Shown here: piece after piece, positions 10,189 to 36,400 of the stretch
Layout of the letters: each line of letters begins with the position of its first letter
How positions within the stretch are numbered: the stretch's first letter is position 1
Assembly: GCA_000091205.1 (NCBI GenBank)
Contig: AP006499.2
DNA length: 64,000 bases
Source: Cyanidioschyzon merolae
Lineage: Eukaryota
Direction: 5' to 3' (one strand)
Notes under the pieces: model-generated
What the model saw: only the letters and a program-made list of their open reading frames with translations
The model's database searches: none
Told to the model about the DNA's origin: nothing
Position numbers and translations under genes: made by a program

Positions 10189-10216
<28 letters not shown>

Positions 10217-10221
10217 CCCAA
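10189..10221. repeat. (CACG)n microsatellite, followed by (GAC)6 at 10280-10300
   Basis: gcacgcacgcacgcacgcacgcacgcacgcac read directly. gacgacgacgacgacgac follows. Confidence 0.9.
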
Positions 10222-10399
10222 CGTGACAGCAAGGCAGCAGCGCTGCGCGCCCGCATCGTTGCCCGTCCGCAGTGACTCGGGCGTCGACGACGACGACGAC
10301 GGCGAAGAAACGGAACTCGAGTGCTGCGGGCGCGTGACGGCGGGAGCGCTGGGCGCGCGCGCGCGCTGAGATCATCTTGCCGGACTCGTCGTTTTCGAC

Positions 10400-11800
10400 G
10401 TGCAGCAGTGAGGGTCTATCGATATATGTAGGTGGATTTGGGATTTTTGGGTCATCTTTTGGGGTGGTTCGCTTGACGCTTTGCGGTTGGAATGAAGTTA
10501 GGTTACCGTAAACGAGCTGATTCGCAGTGCCATGGAACAGGGTTCGAAAACGATCTGGTATTATGATGCAGTACACAAGGTGCACAGCGCCACGCTTCGC
10601 GTTGTTTTCCCGTGAATCATGCATTACACGAGCATTCTTCGAGATTTTTACGGCTGTGTTTCATGGAAACCCGTAGGCACAGTGATTCGGGCCGATGGAT
10701 TTACAAGAAAAACGTTCGGCCTCGTTTCTTGACGACTTGTTCACAAGCTCTTGTCGAATGTTCACTGAAATACGAAGGTAAAATAATCGACTCCGTTCGA
10801 GAGAAAAATCCAAGGCTCTATGTGGCCATGGATGAAGCGGCGTTCGATAGCAGCATGATGCCTCTTAGGGGCTATGCTGCCGGAGGCCCTGGTGTCTTCA
10901 GTTTTCATGGAACGGGGTCTTGGACCTCGACTTGAGTCATCGAAGCGATCGTTACCAGGGGAGCGCGCGTCACCGCTTCGCAAAAAAGGAGCATGAACGG
11001 ATCGAAATTACTCGATTTTTCCTCCAAACTGGATTTCTGTTTTCGCACTTGTTCCATCGCAGAAAACATTGCGCTCCATAAACCCTCAGTAGAATGGAAC
11101 AACGTGCGCCGGATTGTGCGATCGATAGAGAACTTGTCGGGGAATCGTCCAGAAAAAGCCCGTGATCGCTGGTACAGCGTCGAGGGCGTTATCGAAGGAG
11201 GGTATCGACCATCATCCGCTGTGCTCGTCAAGGGCATGTACCGAGTGATAAAGCGTGCCTTTATGCGCCATAGGCCGGTGCCCAGAGAAGTACATACGGT
11301 GGACATGTCGGAACGCATTCAAGTTTCGCGGCTGCGACAGATTCTATACAAAGAAGATAAAAACGAGAATCGAATCGTAGATTGCAACTTTTGCATCTGC
11401 ATGAAATGCGTAAACAACATACGGAAGCCGATTAGGTATGCCGGTAGCACTCGTATGAATATCCTTCGACTGCTGACAAAAGAGCAGGAGCAACGAGAGA
11501 ATCCGGCGGATTGAAAGCCCGGCATAAGAGAGAGGGGATGAAAACAGTCGTAGAAAAAGCCGGCAAACGCTGGTTCGATGACAATGTGAAGAGACCAATA
11601 CCCTTGCGCGTACACCCGAGTTAGCAAAGTGGACCGGTTCCATTCCATTCTGGAATGGGTGTATCTCAGTGCTCGCGTGTTGATGGCACTGGGAAGCGAC
11701 CCAACGTTCAATGTGTACGTCCGAGCTGGAACACCTCTTCCACGCTAGTCTGGCAAGAGAGTATCTCAGATTTCGCGTATTGCCAGAGTCGGAGCGGGCG
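10400..11800 (+). mobile_element. TnpB-like RuvC nuclease relic, family B copy B1
   Basis: ORF 10993..11514 reads ...RIVRSIENLSGN (RuvC-II-like E), W(x11)YR, C-NFC-ICMKC zinc cluster, then STRMNILRLLTKE in place of D-NAA-NILR. Upstream ORF has YVAMDEAAFDS (RuvC-I-like). The 3' tail 11514-11780 is about 75% identical to the B2 tail. AT-richer than flanks. 5' boundary approximate. Confidence 0.5.
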
Positions 11801-12470
11801 TCCCGCGCACTACCGACGGCCCAGGGAATGCGCCTGATCACCGCATCGCAGCTACAGCTGGAGCCTGCAGCCTGATGCACAGAAGCGTGGCGCATCTGGA
11901 TCGCTACCCTGCGGCTACCGCTGCCATCGTTCTGCACCTGTGGTCCTATTGTCCATGCAGGGTACACCATTTACCACGCGACGACGGCTACTGGATACCG
12001 CGCCTACGGATGTGGCTGGCCCCCAGCCGACCACGCGTTGCATGTTGGCAGCCCGCTGTGGCATCGAAACCGCGGGTTCCGCGGCAAACGGCCGTGCCAA
12101 TGTCGCGCCCTGATCGGGCCTCGCACAGCCTGCACCAGTGTGCACGCTCCAGCACGGCGCCAGCACGGCACTTGACGTGTTCACCGGTAACCCGCCATTC
12201 AATGTTAAATGCAAATTTAGCTTATCTCGTCGTTCCATTTAGTATTTCAGCAGCACAAAACATACGAAACGCCCAGCGTCAACGCAAACGATCCCACGAC
12301 GCGATCCATGGAATGTTGTGTGCAGTGATGTGTACGCGTGAACACATGTCACGACCTAGCCAGCATCCGTCAACTGCGTACCAGGATTGAAGCTCGTCCG
12401 CGATTCGACGGACGTATTGGCATCCATAGAAACCCCGTGCGCGTTGCCGCTACTCACAGTGTCGCGAGGA

Positions 12471-15400
12471 TCACAATACAGTCGTCAACGTCGACGATGG
12501 CGCCACGGACACTGCGACGCCAGCCTCGCGCACACGCATCGTTCCGGGTGACGTAACCGCACGTGCGGTGCTTGCGTCCTTTCCGGTACTTGGGTCCAGG
12601 CGCAGCGCACGATACCGACCCTGACAACGAATGAGAAGACGCCTCCCATTCGAGGATGCATCCATCCAGGCCGCGCACGCACGCATCACCACGAGCTCGT
12701 GATCGCCCGCATCGACGAGTGCGTGCACCTCCGCGGCGAGCACCGCCGCCGCATCGCCGATTGCCGCACGAACGCTCTGCGTTACCGCTGGAGGCACCGC
12801 AGTCGCGGCGGACGCGGTACCCGTACGGAGCTCCGTGTCGAAGCGCACCTCGGCGACATATGTGCCGTCGTCGAAGCGTGACGTCAAGGCAGGTATGCCG
12901 CCGCCCTGTCGTGCATTCAGAATCTGGATACCAATGGTGACAGGCGCAGCAGGCGGCGTGCTTGTCGAGTAGGCCTCGCGGAGGCACCGCGCGAACGCTG
13001 CATCGCGTTGTATGTTGCACGACAGGAATGCAGCCGTGCGAGACGATGCGCTGCAGCGGAGCGATGTGACGCAGAGCCACTGCACGCTGCAGTCGGGGCG
13101 CTGCAGCGTCAGCACCGCAACCGCTTTGGGTAGGGCGCTTGCAAAGCGCCTGAGCTCCTCGGCTCGTTCAGCGGGTTCGCTTGCAGGTGCTCGGGGTACA
13201 CAACGCAGCTCGATCGTTCCGAGCTGATTCTGGAAATAGAGCAGCAGCCGCATCGGGTCTGGTGTGCCGAACGTCAGCTGCTGAACCTCGGCTACCACGA
13301 GATATTCGCCGAATTCTGGTGTCAGTGGATGCGTACGACGGACGTTGACCTGTAGCGCTGGTGCGCTAGGCAGCGCATCGCGTTCCAAGTTCAGGTCCGT
13401 GAGGTGCACCAACGAGCCGCAGGCCTGGGAAGCGCCGCGCATTCGGGCGAGCGCGAAGATTCGCTCGACCAGTGGCTGATGCGCATTCGTTAGAAGGTAC
13501 AGGGACAGCGCATCGGGTAAACCAATGTGACCGTGAGCGCTCAGCGCGACGTCTTCATGGATAGGCTTCTCGTCGCCACTGCAGGTATCTGCGGGTTGCG
13601 TGCACGACCTCACGTCATCGACAACCATGTGAAAAGAAACGCACGGCGGTGAAAGCGAACAGACTGCAACCGTGTCGACGAGTGCAATTCCGAGCGTATT
13701 CGTTGATGGCAGCGCTGCGACGACAAGAAATAGGACACGCGGTAGGAGCGCTGCTGCCGCTGAGCAGGCCATGAAACCGGTCTTCAACTCGGGTAGGATG
13801 CGCGGGCTTGCCGCACGCGGTGTGCTCTCTATGCGCGGCCCCTTTTCGAATTCAGACCGCATCAGAACGGCAACCGAGGGTAATGGCTGAAACGGAGGCA
13901 CATAAAAGACGCTTCGCTCGCTTTTCGCCGCGTTCTTGGAGTATATCTGCCTCGTGACCAGACAGTATGCAAGAACTTGTGGGTGCCCTTGCAACCATTC
14001 AGCCGCGTCCGATGCCTTCTGAAACGTCATTGCTGCGGTGGCCAGAGCGTCCGCTGTGGCTGCATCCTTTGCAAGCACCGTCGCCGACGCTATCGAATCC
14101 TTGGTGGCCCGCTGGACGCGTCTCGTGAGCGGGCACAATATATGATAGAAGCCGAAACGCTCCATCTGGTAGTAATCTCCAGACGTAGCGAGTCCGAAGC
14201 CTTCATCACTGTCTTCGAATGCCAGCGAAAAGGCTGCATCCTTGAGGCACGGTATCCACGTCCGCGCTCCGTGTTTCCATCCGGAAAACAGTTGCTCTAG
14301 CGGTGGCGGGCGAATCACCAGCGTTCGCCACGGGCGACCACTGGGATGTCGTCCCCAGGCCCTAATTTCGCTACCCCAGTCCAGAAATGCTCCAACAAGT
14401 TGATAAGCGCCCTCCGGCGAATCAGCGGATACTGCTGCGCTCTCCGCACCAGAGACACTCGATTCAAGGCCGCCAGCCGCCGGCGATATCCTATTCTCTA
14501 GCGATTTTCCATTATTATCTGTTGCTGGTGCTGCTGCAGGAGCAACAAGTTCGCTAGATTGTAGCTTTGATTGATCGTCCAGCCGCAGACGCTCTGCTCC
14601 AAAGCGCTCTCGCAAAGTCCTGTCAATCTGATCAATGATCCAGCCTTTCAGCATCCCATCCAGATCGATACACACACCGCTGCGCGTCAGCACAAGCGCA
14701 CCGGGGTGTCCCGGGCGCGGTGCTTGCAACCGCACGAGCTCAGACCATCCGACCTTTTCCCAATCAAGTTGAAAACGCTCTTCCTTGGGGGGGGCGCTGC
14801 AGAGCACTGCTGCGCAGCGTCGCCCTGAAACCACGCCACAGCGCACCGCATGTCGGATCGAAACGCCCACCAGTGACCCGATGCAAACGATGCGCCTCTG
14901 CCAACAATGCGTACAAAATTGTACCAACTTCGACAGCCTTTTTCGGATGCGCGCTGCTGCACGCTGCGCTCAGCTCCGAGTCGGGATTCCACCGATTCGC
15001 GATGCGTTCGCAAGCGTGCATGTGGGCGCGCAAGCACGCGTGCACTGCGCGTAAGAGCGACTCGGGAACGCAAGCGTCCATCACGCATTCGGGTGCAGCG
15101 GACGATGCACCCAAAGCCGCCCAGTGCATCTGAAGTTGCAATGCGATTCCGAACGCCTTGCCTGAAAACACGACAAGCACGCGATCTTGGTAAGCTTGCT
15201 GGACAACGGAATCGAGCGATAGATCGAGCGGCGACGGGGGCGCGCCGATGCCGCCCGCCGCCGCTCCCTCGTTCGTGGCATCTGATGTAGCATCGAACCG
15301 ACACCAGGCGTCATCGTGGGCGTTAAGCACCTCCTGGTGCACCGCTGCGCCATCTTCCGCAACGAGGTCCGCTGAGGAATCCTCCATACTATACGCTGCC

Positions 15401-15528
15401 TTGGGCTGACGCTCATCGTGCAAGTCATCAATGCCAGACGCGGTGGACAACGAATCATAGGCGCCGGCAGAGCGCTCTTCGTTAACTTCGAGATATCCGC
15501 CTTCCGGTACTGAGAAGAGACAACCCAT
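12471..15528 (-). CDS. ApbE-family FAD:protein FMN transferase fused to about 480-aa C-terminal domain of unknown function; reading frame broken at a G8 homopolymer (14787-14794)
   Basis: ORF 14764..15543(-) carries the ApbE N-terminus (LVVFSGKAFGIAL; SELSAAC...GGRFDPTCGALWRGF). ORF 12471..14927(-) in another frame continues with IDLDGMLKGW, TSGDYYQMERFGFYHILCP, SATVLAKDAATADALATAAM. The frame switch falls at ccttgggggggg. N-terminus from ATG 15526-15528 reads MGCLFS (Gly2/Cys3 acylation-type motif). Confidence 0.7.
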
Positions 15529-16378
15529 GACCGCCAAGCTCAAGCCCTAAAACGAAACTCTTGTTCAAGAGTCTCTCGCAAAGCGAGCACTAATCACGCT
15601 GCAAACCACCAACACACATGCACGATCTATGTCTTTGTCAACTGAACGAAGCTCCATGCCAGGGCGAGCCACGTGTACGAGGACTGCGAGCGCGACGCCG
15701 CACGTCCGTCCGCCGCTCGAACACGACATGCGGCACGCGTGCGAAACGACGCCTGGCACCGGCTGCAAACACGCGATCGCCACGCGCGGCACACGCTGGG
15801 AATCGCTTCCGAGAGCAGTGCATGGTGATTATGGGCGTTTGTTACCATGAAGTTCAGAAAGGTGGAGATTCGTGATTCTAGCTCTGCGATTCGTCGAACA
15901 GTGCCCAGTGCGCAGCGCGCACGATGGGGCAACGCCGGCTGTCATCAGCGCCTCGAAGCAATTGAACAGCAGCTCGAAGGCACGACGAGTAGAAACTGAC
16001 CATTTACTAGGAACGAAGGGAGAGTGCTTCGTTATCCATGCGCGGCAAGGGATGAGAGGTGGTAGATTTTTGCGTGAATAGGAAACTTTACTTGGTGGGC
16101 GTAAGCTCCCGCGATCCGGGCTCGTACGCGGTGCGTACCCGCAGTGGCGAGTGCGTTGGCGACGCCCGAGCAGTTCGTCCGCAACCCAGTGTTTTCTGGG
16201 ACGAGGAGAAAGGTGCCTGGCGTCTGGGCATCGCCCTGACCTCTATCGTCCTGTAGCGTGTCGTTTCGTGCTATCTCGAGCACTAGGTCTATTTGAGCGG
16301 CCTGCGGGATCCCGGGATAACGAAGCAATTCGAACACGAGTCTCATGAACCACACCTCGAGCTGGCGCCTTCCGTAGT

Positions 16379-33439: not shown

Positions 33440-36400
33440 ATTATGCGGGTTCTCCTTTCTTTTTTGTGTGTTTTCTTTCAGTGCGCGGCGACGTATCCAC
33501 CAACCCCCTACCTCCAAGTTACATACCCTTTACTGATTCCAGGATATTCTGGTCGTTTCATACGTCCCATCGCGTGTGCCTCGTACCTGCCGTTCCGTAT
33601 TCGCCTTTGCGCTTGAACGCTGGAGCAGATAGTTCATGGAGCTGGAACAGCTTTTCTACACCACAGAGGGCGTCGGCTCGAGGCGTGCTTCACCCGACGT
33701 AGAATCGGATCTCGTCGTCAGTTTGTGCTCGGACAGTCTGCGGATGCAGGCTTGTCTTCGCTGCACGACACGCTGGAGAAACTTGGTTGTTAGGATATAT
33801 CGTGGAAGCCGCCTCTCTCCTTTGTGATCATGCATGGAATGCGTTGTTGTCGGTTGGCAATGCGGGTTTGTGCTTGACACCCACCACAGTGGGTAGGCGC
33901 AAAGAGCGCACTGAGCCCATGTGCGCATCCGATTCGCTGGACCTTCCGCCTAGAAGGTAGCATGTGAGTTTGTTCGCCACTAATGAGCGCTGAGGCTCGG
34001 TTAGCGGACCATCAGTTGCCAGTGCTACACTCAGGGTGAGTGTCCGGCCTTTTGCTATCACGGTGATGTCCAGCTGCTGCTGTCCTTCAAGGAGCTCGCT
34101 GCGCTCCTGCTTCGAGCGCGGGCACTGTAAGCCCAAATATGTCAGCGTCTCGGGGGTCTGGTCTCCAGAGCAGGGACAGTGTGACTCCCAGTGCGACTCC
34201 AGTGTTCCTATACGGCTTAGAGCCGGTGCTGGTAGCCAGATGCCACCAACGCGGATTTTGGCGAGCCACTGGGTACCTCGAGCAAGTCCCGGGAATTCCA
34301 GCGCCTCCCACCAGTACTTGCACGTGTTTGCTAGGTTGTAGTTCCGGTATACAGTCAAGCCGGCGTTAAGGGCGCGATTTGTTCCGTGTCTACGTTCCCA
34401 TATTGTTTGGACCGTTCGCTTGAGGCGGCGGGAGCCTTGTACATTTCTGGGGAACGATTGGAGCGCATTTTCGCCTAAGAGGCGCTTCAGCCAAATCTGC
34501 GCTGATTTCATCCAAGTGTTCTAGCGGTGCGTTGGGGTCTGCATGAAAATCCGACTCAAAGAGGTGCGCATAGTGGGCCCTTTGGCCCGTATACATGCCC
34601 GGCAGCCTGCTGCTATCGCTTCTGTCGAGGCTATTTGGAGTTCAAGTCCGAGTGCCAGCGCGGTGGTTGCTCTGCTCTGCACTGAGCATCCAACAACAAC
34701 GAGTCGCATTGCCCTGTTGGCGGCTGTCTGCGGACGCGAGGCATTTGTGTGCTTCATGCCGCACCACCCAGCACCCCAGGTCGTAGGCTGGATGATACAC
34801 ATCCTTAGTGCCCTCGTACGGATTGCTAAGGGGATAGAGGGGTCGGATAGGACTGGGCGTGCGATCGCTGTACGTCTACGCATCTTGGCGATCATCTCGT
34901 TAACGTGTGCCTTTTCGTCGAGCGTCAGCATGCGACAGACCCTGCAGATAGCGATATTTTTCCCCGATCGGACTTTCCTGATTCTGCAACCGCCACGAGC
35001 GATTGCGAATGCTCTGCGAGTCTCCATGGATGACCATGACGCCGCACTTCGATGCTCCTACGTTCATCTTCCAGCGATCGACCCAGGCGCTGACTTGTTC
35101 CATGCTACCCGCAAGCGTTTCCGGGGCGGGTGCCAACAACACGACATCGTCCGCGAATAGAAGGCCTGCGAGGCGGTTCCTATGCGAGGGCTCTTTACCG
35201 GGCTCTCCGCAGTCTATCCACGGCACCTCAAGTCCGTATTGTCTGCAGTTGTTCAGCGGATCGTTGATGAAGATGTTGAAAAGGAGCGGGGATGCGGGGT
35301 CGCCCTTTTGTAGTCCACGGCGGATTCTTATACAAGGGGTTCTTGAGCTGTCGCCCAGTCGGATGCGCATCCATGAGTCTGCATAGAGCGCACGGAAGAA
35401 CGCTAAGCACTTTCCGGAGACTACGGCACGTTCCATCTTCAAAAATAGAACCTCGTGCGGGACCGTGTCAAAGACCTTTTGGAAGTCGGTGAAGCATACG
35501 TAAGTTGGTTGTCGGTCACGAATAAAGCGACGTTGCGCCACTTCAATGAGGGTCAGGGCATGGCTCATGTACTCCTCGCGGCTCCGGAATCCAGCCTGCC
35601 CTGGGGCGAAGAACTTGCGTTGCTCGAGGCCCCTCTGAGTCCGGTTCGTGGGAATGGCGCAAAGTAGCTTTATGATTGACGGGATGAGGCGCATAGTCCG
35701 GTAGTTGTTCATGTCTGTGTGGGAGTCTTTTTTGAGGATCGGTACGACTTCGGCAGTCCTCCATACATCCGGGATGTACGTTTCTTCGAACATGCCTTGG
35801 ATGAGCTCCACAAGGCGTTTGCCTAAGCTTGTGTCAGGTTCATCTGGTATCGATGGTGTCCCTGTTGTCCCGTCTTTTGGGGTCGTCAGTTTCATCCACT
35901 CCGCAGGGATACCGTCGATGCTAGGTGTTTTGCGGTTGCATGACCTTAAGAGGGTCCGAACAGATTCAGGCCAGAAGATTGGCTCGTTCCATTCCGGTAC
36001 CGGGTCGAGGCGCGGTAGTTCTGCGGCATACTGGTGCCAATAGATTCGGTTTTGGCAGTGCCCAGTTGCGTCTTCATGTAATTCTGTGCCGTGGTCCGTC
36101 CAGGCCTCATTCACTGAGGCACCCTCCGTCCTCAGCGCTTCCTTATAAACGATTGGTGTGAGCCCCAGACACTTTTTTGGTGGGTCAAGTCTCGATCGGA
36201 TATAGCGCTAGGTCTCATCTTCGTTGGTGCTCTCGAGCATAGATTTCGCCAGGGAGGCGATTTTGCGGTTTCGATCCTCCTGTTTGTCTTCTCTGGAAAG
36301 TTTCTTCTTTCTTTTGATAGCTTCCTCATGTTGCGCCTGTAGCGCCGGTAGCGCTGCCTTCGCTTCCTTGTCTCCGGCGTTGGCGCGTATGGCGGTGCGT

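Follow-up and report, generated by a model that had tools for sequence, protein, structure and literature searches.

In eukaryotes, covalent attachment of flavin mononucleotide (FMN) through a phosphoester bond has been documented only for the kinetoplastid NADH-dependent fumarate reductase (FRD), with the addition of some predicted algal FRDs. In a 2025 review and in the T. brucei study, eukaryotic ApbEs, the flavin transferases responsible, are listed only in kinetoplastids and those predicted algal FRDs. For T. brucei FRDg, flavinylation in cis is proven and takes place on an N-terminal serine, Ser9 (T. brucei study); the same work gives the ApbE target consensus as Dxx(s/t)(s/g)A(S/T). Here we describe a gene on the minus strand of a 64,000-nucleotide stretch of Cyanidioschyzon merolae DNA (contig AP006499.2; the whole stretch is called the window below), which the reference sequence splits by a single extra G. 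Once restored, it encodes a 1018-amino-acid (aa) member of an undescribed eukaryotic family that carries a predicted lipid-anchor signal, a candidate flavinylation target, an ApbE domain and two flavin-reductase-like barrels on one chain.

The closest known system is the kinetoplastid FRD (T. brucei FRDg, L. pyrrhocoris FRD), which likewise places a target motif, an ApbE domain and a redox module on one chain. In both, a eukaryotic intracellular ApbE is preceded by Dxx(s/t)xA(S/T) with a Ser or Thr acceptor, and both contain the ADALATA Mg-site motif. The redox modules differ, being two Flavin_Reduct barrels in the algal protein and FAD_binding_2 plus cytochrome-b5-reductase in the kinetoplastid one. 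Because Pfam matches neither FAD_binding_2 nor cytochrome-b5-reductase in the restored protein or its homologues, and finds ApbE and Flavin_Reduct only, the algal protein is not an FRD, and the resemblance is one of layout and presumed mechanism. Unlike the kinetoplastid motif, the algal one follows an MGCxxS signal rather than sitting at residues 3-9, and the algal protein has no glycosomal or mitochondrial targeting.

All positions below are in window numbering, and the residue-to-coordinate map of the restored gene was checked codon by codon. An earlier note on this DNA had described two overlapping open reading frames (ORFs) and placed a frameshift between them at a G8 homopolymer, which the ORF map confirms. 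The upstream ORF, 14764..15543(-), has 259 aa when counted from a TTG and 254 aa from its first ATG at 15528; the downstream ORF, 12471..14927(-), has 818 aa in a different frame and overlaps the first. Inside the overlap lies GGGGGGGG at 14787-14794, the sole G or C run of at least seven in the 64-kb window. Deletion of one G from it produces a single 1018-aa ORF, MGCLFS...TTVL, with the frame shift falling after Pro247 (junction aa 247/248). The 254-aa piece is identical, shifted tail ...RPPQGRAFST included, to BAM81997.1/XP_005538033.1 of C. merolae strain 10D ("similar to thiamine biosynthesis lipoprotein apbE"), and this stump is the only reference annotation for the locus. This identity, together with the ordinary eukaryotic genes nearby, means that the window is the 10D reference or equal to it. 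The 10D reference proteome consequently holds a 254-aa stump in place of a 1018-aa enzyme and leaves about 764 codons without annotation. In our judgment the locus is probably one nuclear gene of C. merolae with a 1018-aa product in the species, a judgment that covers the joint best explanation with its proposed mechanism. The gene and its parts are as follows.

12471..15528, minus strand: the whole gene, same as C. merolae 10D BAM81997.1; 1018 codons after removal of one G
15511..15528, minus strand: MGCLFS at the first ATG of the ORF, consensus for N-myristoylation (Gly2) and S-palmitoylation (Cys3) with Ser6
15436..15456, minus strand: putative flavinylation target D25-S-L-S-T-A-S31, a match to the published consensus; predicted FMN acceptor Ser31 at 15436-15438
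13869..15216, minus strand: ApbE (FAD:protein FMN transferase; FAD, flavin adenine dinucleotide) domain, aa ~105-553, from Pfam and Foldseek; frameshift after aa 247
14787..14794, no strand assigned: G8 homopolymer GGGGGGGG (read as C8 from the coding strand), which spans codons R245(c)-P246-P247 with one base in excess
14764..14766, minus strand: premature TGA in the shifted frame, which terminates the annotated 254-aa product with its tail ...RPPQGRAFST
14412..14600, minus strand: low-complexity insertion in the ApbE domain, aa ~310-372 (alignment columns 510-575; predicted local distance difference test score, pLDDT, <50 for aa 331-372)
13188..13775, minus strand: flavin-reductase-like barrel D1, aa ~585-780, with an SLSPP motif at 13644-13658; beta-rich in the AlphaFold2 (AF2) model and aligned to D2 by hhalign
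12573..13187, minus strand: flavin-reductase-like barrel D2, aa ~781-985, with a GDH motif at 12699-12707 and a disordered insertion at aa 874-923

For comparison with wild alleles, we retrieved the DNA of two intact cluster members and scanned JGI metagenomes with a pattern allowing 6-10 Cs. The run has seven letters in 6/6 independent environmental contigs spanning the site (Logan SRR5248875, ENA ERZ27249350, JGI 3300050370, Ga0080006, Ga0078972 and Ga0207433). These six contigs share 99.2-99.6% identity with the window over 7-19 kb, and the G-run difference is the only indel in the coding sequence. Among proteins, the cluster at 90% identity has 27 members, and 11 of the 15 listed are intact 1018-aa proteins, 99% identical, that read ...LQRPPKEERFQLDW.... 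Because G7 is present in the six contigs and at least 11 proteins are intact, the split is a private 1-bp insertion, and the extra G is private to the reference sequence. As a lesion the frameshift is nothing unusual, being a 1-bp homopolymer difference specific to the reference. The window coding sequence also has four private substitutions, two synonymous and two non-synonymous, with no additional stops or indels downstream of the shift.

Cluster members of 754 and 789 aa were considered as natural frameshift alleles and rejected as contig-edge artefacts, one (L003) starting 11 nucleotides before the run and the other (L004) opening with a chimeric join. At its positions 1-30, L003 (JGI 3300050370, Ga0506604_002065) reads CTG TAG CGC CCCCCC, with a stop replacing Gln244 and a run of seven; this stop is an error at the contig edge or else a naturally occurring nonsense allele of this gene. 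The remaining indels between the window and the wild contigs are all in intergenic microsatellites, at 10190-10450 and 12131-12140, and comprise (GCGT)n, (GTC)n, (GC)n, an A run and a 10-bp indel.

The restored protein matches the Pfam ApbE profile PF02424 with 118.9 bits (E 3.7e-34, cut-off 25.6), covering profile positions 13-262 in two stretches. A match of an ApbE hidden Markov model over both pieces, whose absence had been set beforehand as a refuting test, is therefore present. The better of the two stretches, aa 162-308 (profile 13-147), continues unbroken across the junction at aa 247/248; the earlier note had traced ApbE motifs from one frame into the other, and this one uninterrupted match bears out that continuity and shows that the overlap is not chance. 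Scored alone, the fragments reach 43.5 bits (profile 13-85) and 65.6 bits (profile 150-262). PF02424 is matched in 16/16 homologues, and NCBIfam gives an ApbE match below threshold only. A Foldseek search of the AF2 model against the PDB returned 4xdt, 4ifu, 7esb, 3pnd and 6nxi, with E-values of 2.5e-13 to 1e-10 and target template-modeling (TM) scores of 0.70-0.81. Alignment with the T. pallidum enzyme Ftp_Tp places its functional residues in the algal protein as follows.

Ftp_Tp K165 corresponds to K294
Ftp_Tp S240 corresponds to S449
Ftp_Tp H256 corresponds to H462
Ftp_Tp D284 corresponds to D493, at the Mg2+ site
Ftp_Tp T288 corresponds to T497, at the Mg2+ site
Ftp_Tp N55 corresponds to W180, at the isoalloxazine-stacking position

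In Ftp_Tp, K165, S240, H256, D284 and T288 are important by mutagenesis, with D284 and T288 forming the Mg2+ site; the residue at position 55 stacks the isoalloxazine, and the N55Y substitution abolishes FAD hydrolysis and retains transfer (PMC4436053). K294, S449, H462, D493, T497 and W180 are invariant in the 16 family members. The aromatic W180 at position 55 suggests a transferase type rather than the Asn-bearing pyrophosphatase type. Because K294, S449, H462, D493 and T497 all lie downstream of the frameshift, with W180 alone upstream, the 254-aa product cannot be active. By profile, fold and catalytic residues, the restored protein is a bona fide member of the ApbE family, and transfer activity is predicted for it. 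The low-complexity insertion at aa ~310-372 occurs, among aligned members, only in C. merolae and the lineage of homologue P0002, and is predicted to be disordered.

Bacterial ApbE/Ftp proteins (T. pallidum TP0796, E. coli, V. cholerae, Listeria FmnB) share with this domain the fold (TM 0.7-0.8), the Pfam family, the K/S/H/D/T residues and an aromatic flavin-stacking residue. They differ in being periplasmic lipoproteins of ~310-350 aa whose targets, modified in trans, are NqrB/C, RnfD/G and FMN_bind proteins, and their identity to the algal domain is 14-19%. The C. merolae protein, by contrast, is 1018 aa long; N-acyl anchors and a cytosolic orientation are predicted for it, and it has its own candidate target and reductase module.

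The earlier note had left about 480 residues after the ApbE domain as being of unknown function. This description no longer holds, as the C-terminal ~430 aa match NADH:flavin reductase structures and, at threshold, Flavin_Reduct (PF01613). In the C. merolae protein the PF01613 match lies at the threshold (27.1 bits against a cut-off of 27) and is partial, with aa 921-975 covering profile positions 99-152; the 99% identical homologue P0001 scores 26.3 bits. Clear matches to the profile come from 15/16 homologues (best E 1.4e-25) as well as from other members. Structure prediction, which the note had proposed as a check for an FMN-binding fold, led to a flavin-reductase split barrel: with the C-terminal part of the AF2 model, Foldseek found the NADH:flavin reductases SgcE6, CtcQ and SMOB with E-values from 1e-8 to 2e-7 and TM scores of 0.66-0.78. 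An hhalign comparison of D1 with D2 gave a probability of 95% and E 3.8e-8 over 127 columns, and the tandem copies are therefore homologous. Both the SxxPP-like motif (SLSPP, in D1) and the GDH motif (in D2) have roles in Flavin_Reduct proteins. In the family alignment of the GDH motif, aa 941-943, D942 is invariant and H943 is conserved in at least 90%. The C-terminal ~430 aa thus appear as two tandem, diverged flavin-reductase-like split barrels forming a pseudo-dimer, for which reductase activity is at most predicted.

These barrels resemble the NAD(P)H:flavin oxidoreductases of the HpaC/SgcE6/CtcQ/SMOB group (PF01613) in their split-barrel fold (E 1e-8, TM 0.66-0.78), in the GDH of D2 and in the SxxPP-like motif of D1. 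Those enzymes differ in being homodimers of ~160-180 aa that hold flavin non-covalently, whereas in the algal protein two diverged copies with insertions are fused to each other and joined to a flavin transferase.

At the other end of the protein, MGCLFSV fits the criteria for dual acylation: Met1-Gly2, Cys3, a small residue at position 6 and a residue other than Pro at position 7. Among family members with complete N-termini, MGCxxS is found in 30/33 and MGN in 3/33, and all 33-34 sequences pass the PROSITE-type myristoylation pattern G-{EDRKHPFYW}-x(2)-[STAGCN]-{P}. The acylation consensus that the earlier note had read in MGCLFS therefore stands, as a genuine dual-acylation consensus and a conserved family trait that predicts lipidation. 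The same Met-Gly-Cys-x-x-Ser N-terminus is known from Src-family kinases, G-alpha-i and plant CBL/CPK proteins; these differ in carrying unrelated payloads, and acylation of the algal protein is a prediction from its sequence. The note had also called a membrane-anchored eukaryotic ApbE fusion unusual, and no lipid-anchored eukaryotic ApbE fusion is described in the literature searched. Searches on ApbE-flavin-reductase fusions, lipid-anchored ApbEs and the C. merolae gene found nothing, and those on ApbE in algae and on frameshifts in 10D found nothing relevant, with many subscription papers lying outside both.

In the otherwise disordered stretch that separates the lipid signal from the ApbE domain, nearly all family members have a motif [YF]-[DE]-[STAG]-x-x-x-A-[ST]-[YFLW] with the core [DE]-x-x-x-x-A-[ST]; the C. 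merolae version is Y24-D25-S-L-S-T-A-S31. The tight motif is present in 29/33 members, compared with 0.18 expected from composition-preserving shuffles, and it is often followed by F-x-G-L-L and then a DDS motif. In homologues without MGC it moves to the extreme N-terminus, as MDGASSAT (Lacrimia), MADATSSAT or MVDSEASAT, which is exactly its position in T. brucei FRDg (DGRSSAS). The earlier note had suggested the C-terminal extension as the flavinylation substrate. No canonical target motif was noticed in that extension, and the conserved consensus motif lies upstream of ApbE, at D25-S31; the likeliest flavinylation site is thus this N-terminal motif rather than the extension, with Ser31 as the predicted acceptor. 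AF2 modelling of the whole protein gives the N-terminal arm a single ordered patch, which is this motif (pLDDT 63, strand at 26-28); an ApbE-only model of P0034, a Cyanidiococcus orthologue of different sequence (~50% identical), leaves it disordered (pLDDT 23). The two models hint, weakly, that the arm motif may dock on the reductase module.

The protein is a member of an undescribed eukaryotic family. An exhaustive profile search recovered about 40 clusters (at 50% identity) in which the architecture is complete. Named members come from the red algae Pyropia vietnamensis, Bangiopsis sp. and Timspurckia oligopyrenoides, from Cyanidiococcus yangmingshanensis, from the glaucophytes Cyanophora paradoxa and Gloeochaete wittrockiana and from the diplonemid Lacrimia lanifica. 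The comparison with orthologues that the earlier note had proposed shows the relatives as unsplit single ORFs.

Several other sequences are of separate interest. P0034 (Cyanidiococcus yangmingshanensis F1559_000968) is annotated with 484 aa and ends just past ADAFATAAMTF, and the related P0002 and P0033 have 1013 aa; the P0034 gene may be mis-modelled as well. Among prokaryote-like sequences, those that match the profile of the algal ApbE best (P0017, P0018 and P0035-P0037) are 360-aa lipoprotein-like ApbEs and FolD-ApbE fusions with HP(S/E)GRPW. A subgroup of 790-950 aa (P0080, P0138, P0170) starts MAQWD(P/A)RSYL... and has D-x-N/M-A-[ST]-A-T at residues 22-28, followed by ApbE and then degenerate barrels under the Pfam threshold; a homologue search started from P0138, which is euglenozoan-like, brought up no named relatives.

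Reading along the protein, we find an MGCxxS acyl signal, a disordered arm with D25-SLSTA-S31, a complete ApbE domain and two tandem flavin-reductase-like barrels, a layout that suggests how the parts might work together. The lipid anchors would keep the protein at a membrane's cytosolic face. Using FAD, the ApbE domain would place FMN by a phosphoester bond on its own Ser31, in cis. The tethered FMN could then occupy or visit the D1/D2 pseudo-dimer and serve NAD(P)H oxidation there. The outcome would be a membrane-anchored, self-flavinylating NAD(P)H-dependent oxidoreductase. Domain identities, the conservation of catalytic residues, the motif and the anchor signal are established here; from them we infer which residue is the acceptor, that the action is in cis, what donates the electrons and where the protein lies. 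The proposal makes a testable prediction, namely FMN on Ser31 that depends on D493. If it is true, the family would be a second, widespread class of eukaryotic flavinylation substrate, with another redox module and a lipid anchor. A bolder version, which we regard as doubtful, would make it a new class of eukaryotic phosphoester-flavinylated enzymes in which the arm-tethered FMN is a swinging electron carrier from NAD(P)H at the barrels to a membrane acceptor, with 10D as a natural knockout.

As to how the reference came by its extra G, we lean toward a homopolymer miscall. The main competitor, to which we give less than an even chance while taking it seriously, is a sub-case of the same one-gene reading: G8 would be real in 10D, a recent insertion by replication slippage, and the strain or its wild ancestor would be a natural null. 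Homopolymer runs are slippage hot spots, and the private allele sits in a lineage with four private substitutions, which makes that lineage distinct and gives it time for a mutation. The reference, moreover, is presumably Sanger-based and finished, and an 8-versus-7 miscall would then be less common than with pyrosequencing or nanopore, which counts for a real G8 as well. What speaks against a real G8 is that relaxed constraint is not seen downstream of it, given the even count of synonymous and non-synonymous private changes with no more stops or indels, and that the gene is whole in every wild allele found and conserved in red algae, glaucophytes and a diplonemid. For users of this model alga the choice is plain: either the strain is null or the reference is wrong.

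Two further accounts would do without any error or mutation. The full-length protein could come from programmed +1/-1 frameshifting by the ribosome or from slippage of transcription on the G run, and the homopolymer does coincide exactly with the frame change; however, the related alleles (6/6) have G7 in a single open frame, which makes recoding unnecessary, the frame change is not conserved, distant orthologues do without the run (P0002 reads ...IQSPLDEK...), and the data do not require a conserved stimulatory element. Alternatively, there could be two separate genes, a short annotated ApbE-like protein and a downstream one, as the listing of the 254-aa product alone in the reference would have it. 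That product, however, ends at about position 85 of 266 in the Pfam profile, without K294, S449, H462, D493 and T497; the first ATG in the downstream frame does not come before the ApbE domain's middle; and the relatives are all single ORFs. Because the wild alleles are all in frame with G7, programmed recoding and the two-gene reading are both excluded for practical purposes, the former being highly improbable in our estimation and the latter even more so. The earlier note had preferred a sequencing or assembly error or a recent indel over a programmed frameshift, and the in-frame G7 of the wild alleles upholds that preference.

On function, the rival to self-flavinylation is that the ApbE domain acts in trans on other proteins, with the N-terminal motif a regulatory phosphosite or pseudo-substrate, or that it is an FAD pyrophosphatase feeding FMN to the barrels. 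Bacterial ApbEs and the T. brucei domain are capable of trans action (T. brucei study), T. pallidum Ftp hydrolyses FAD (PMC4436053), and the fifth motif position is off consensus in many members (T, A, V or M). Against trans action, the motif co-occurs with the architecture in nearly all members and, in the subgroup without MGC, shifts to the extreme N-terminus like the proven FRD target; against a pyrophosphatase, the Asn55 position holds the invariant aromatic W180, and in Ftp_Tp an aromatic there, in N55Y, cost hydrolysis and kept transfer. Because of this invariant aromatic and the strict co-occurrence of motif and architecture, we consider the rival unlikely, and a membrane-anchored, self-flavinylating NAD(P)H oxidoreductase remains our preferred reading of the protein.

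Several points nonetheless pull the other way. Flavinylation, lipidation and catalysis are predictions. In C. merolae the fifth motif position is Thr rather than the consensus Ser or Gly, and the motif lies 25 residues from the N-terminus rather than at residues 3-9. The barrels may have lost reductase activity, given the threshold PF01613 match and the long insertion in D2. The full-length AF2 model is of modest confidence (mean pLDDT 67.7). On the genomic side, within-population pN/pS (the ratio of non-synonymous to synonymous polymorphism) is ~0.4-0.5 from very few sites, and the differences are too few for dN/dS, the corresponding ratio of substitution rates, to inform on decay. No exact match stands among 15 billion proteins for the restored protein of 1018 aa, for the 254-aa piece or for the downstream ORF started at TTG, GTG or ATG; there being no exact 10D-derived match, a miscall and a real mutation are indistinguishable. 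How we divide probability between those two comes from rough estimates of the rates of finishing error at G runs and of slippage under selection, and is inference rather than result.

The neighboring ORFs are ordinary eukaryotic genes, encoding Brix, inositol polyphosphate kinase, CPSF100, a DWNN protein, histidinol dehydrogenase, an M16 peptidase and eIF2D. Elsewhere in the window, a 404-aa ORF at 34900-36114(-) matches the reverse transcriptase profile RVT_1 (E 5e-20) in a stretch of strongly negative AT skew (34-38 kb), and is probably a retroelement remnant.

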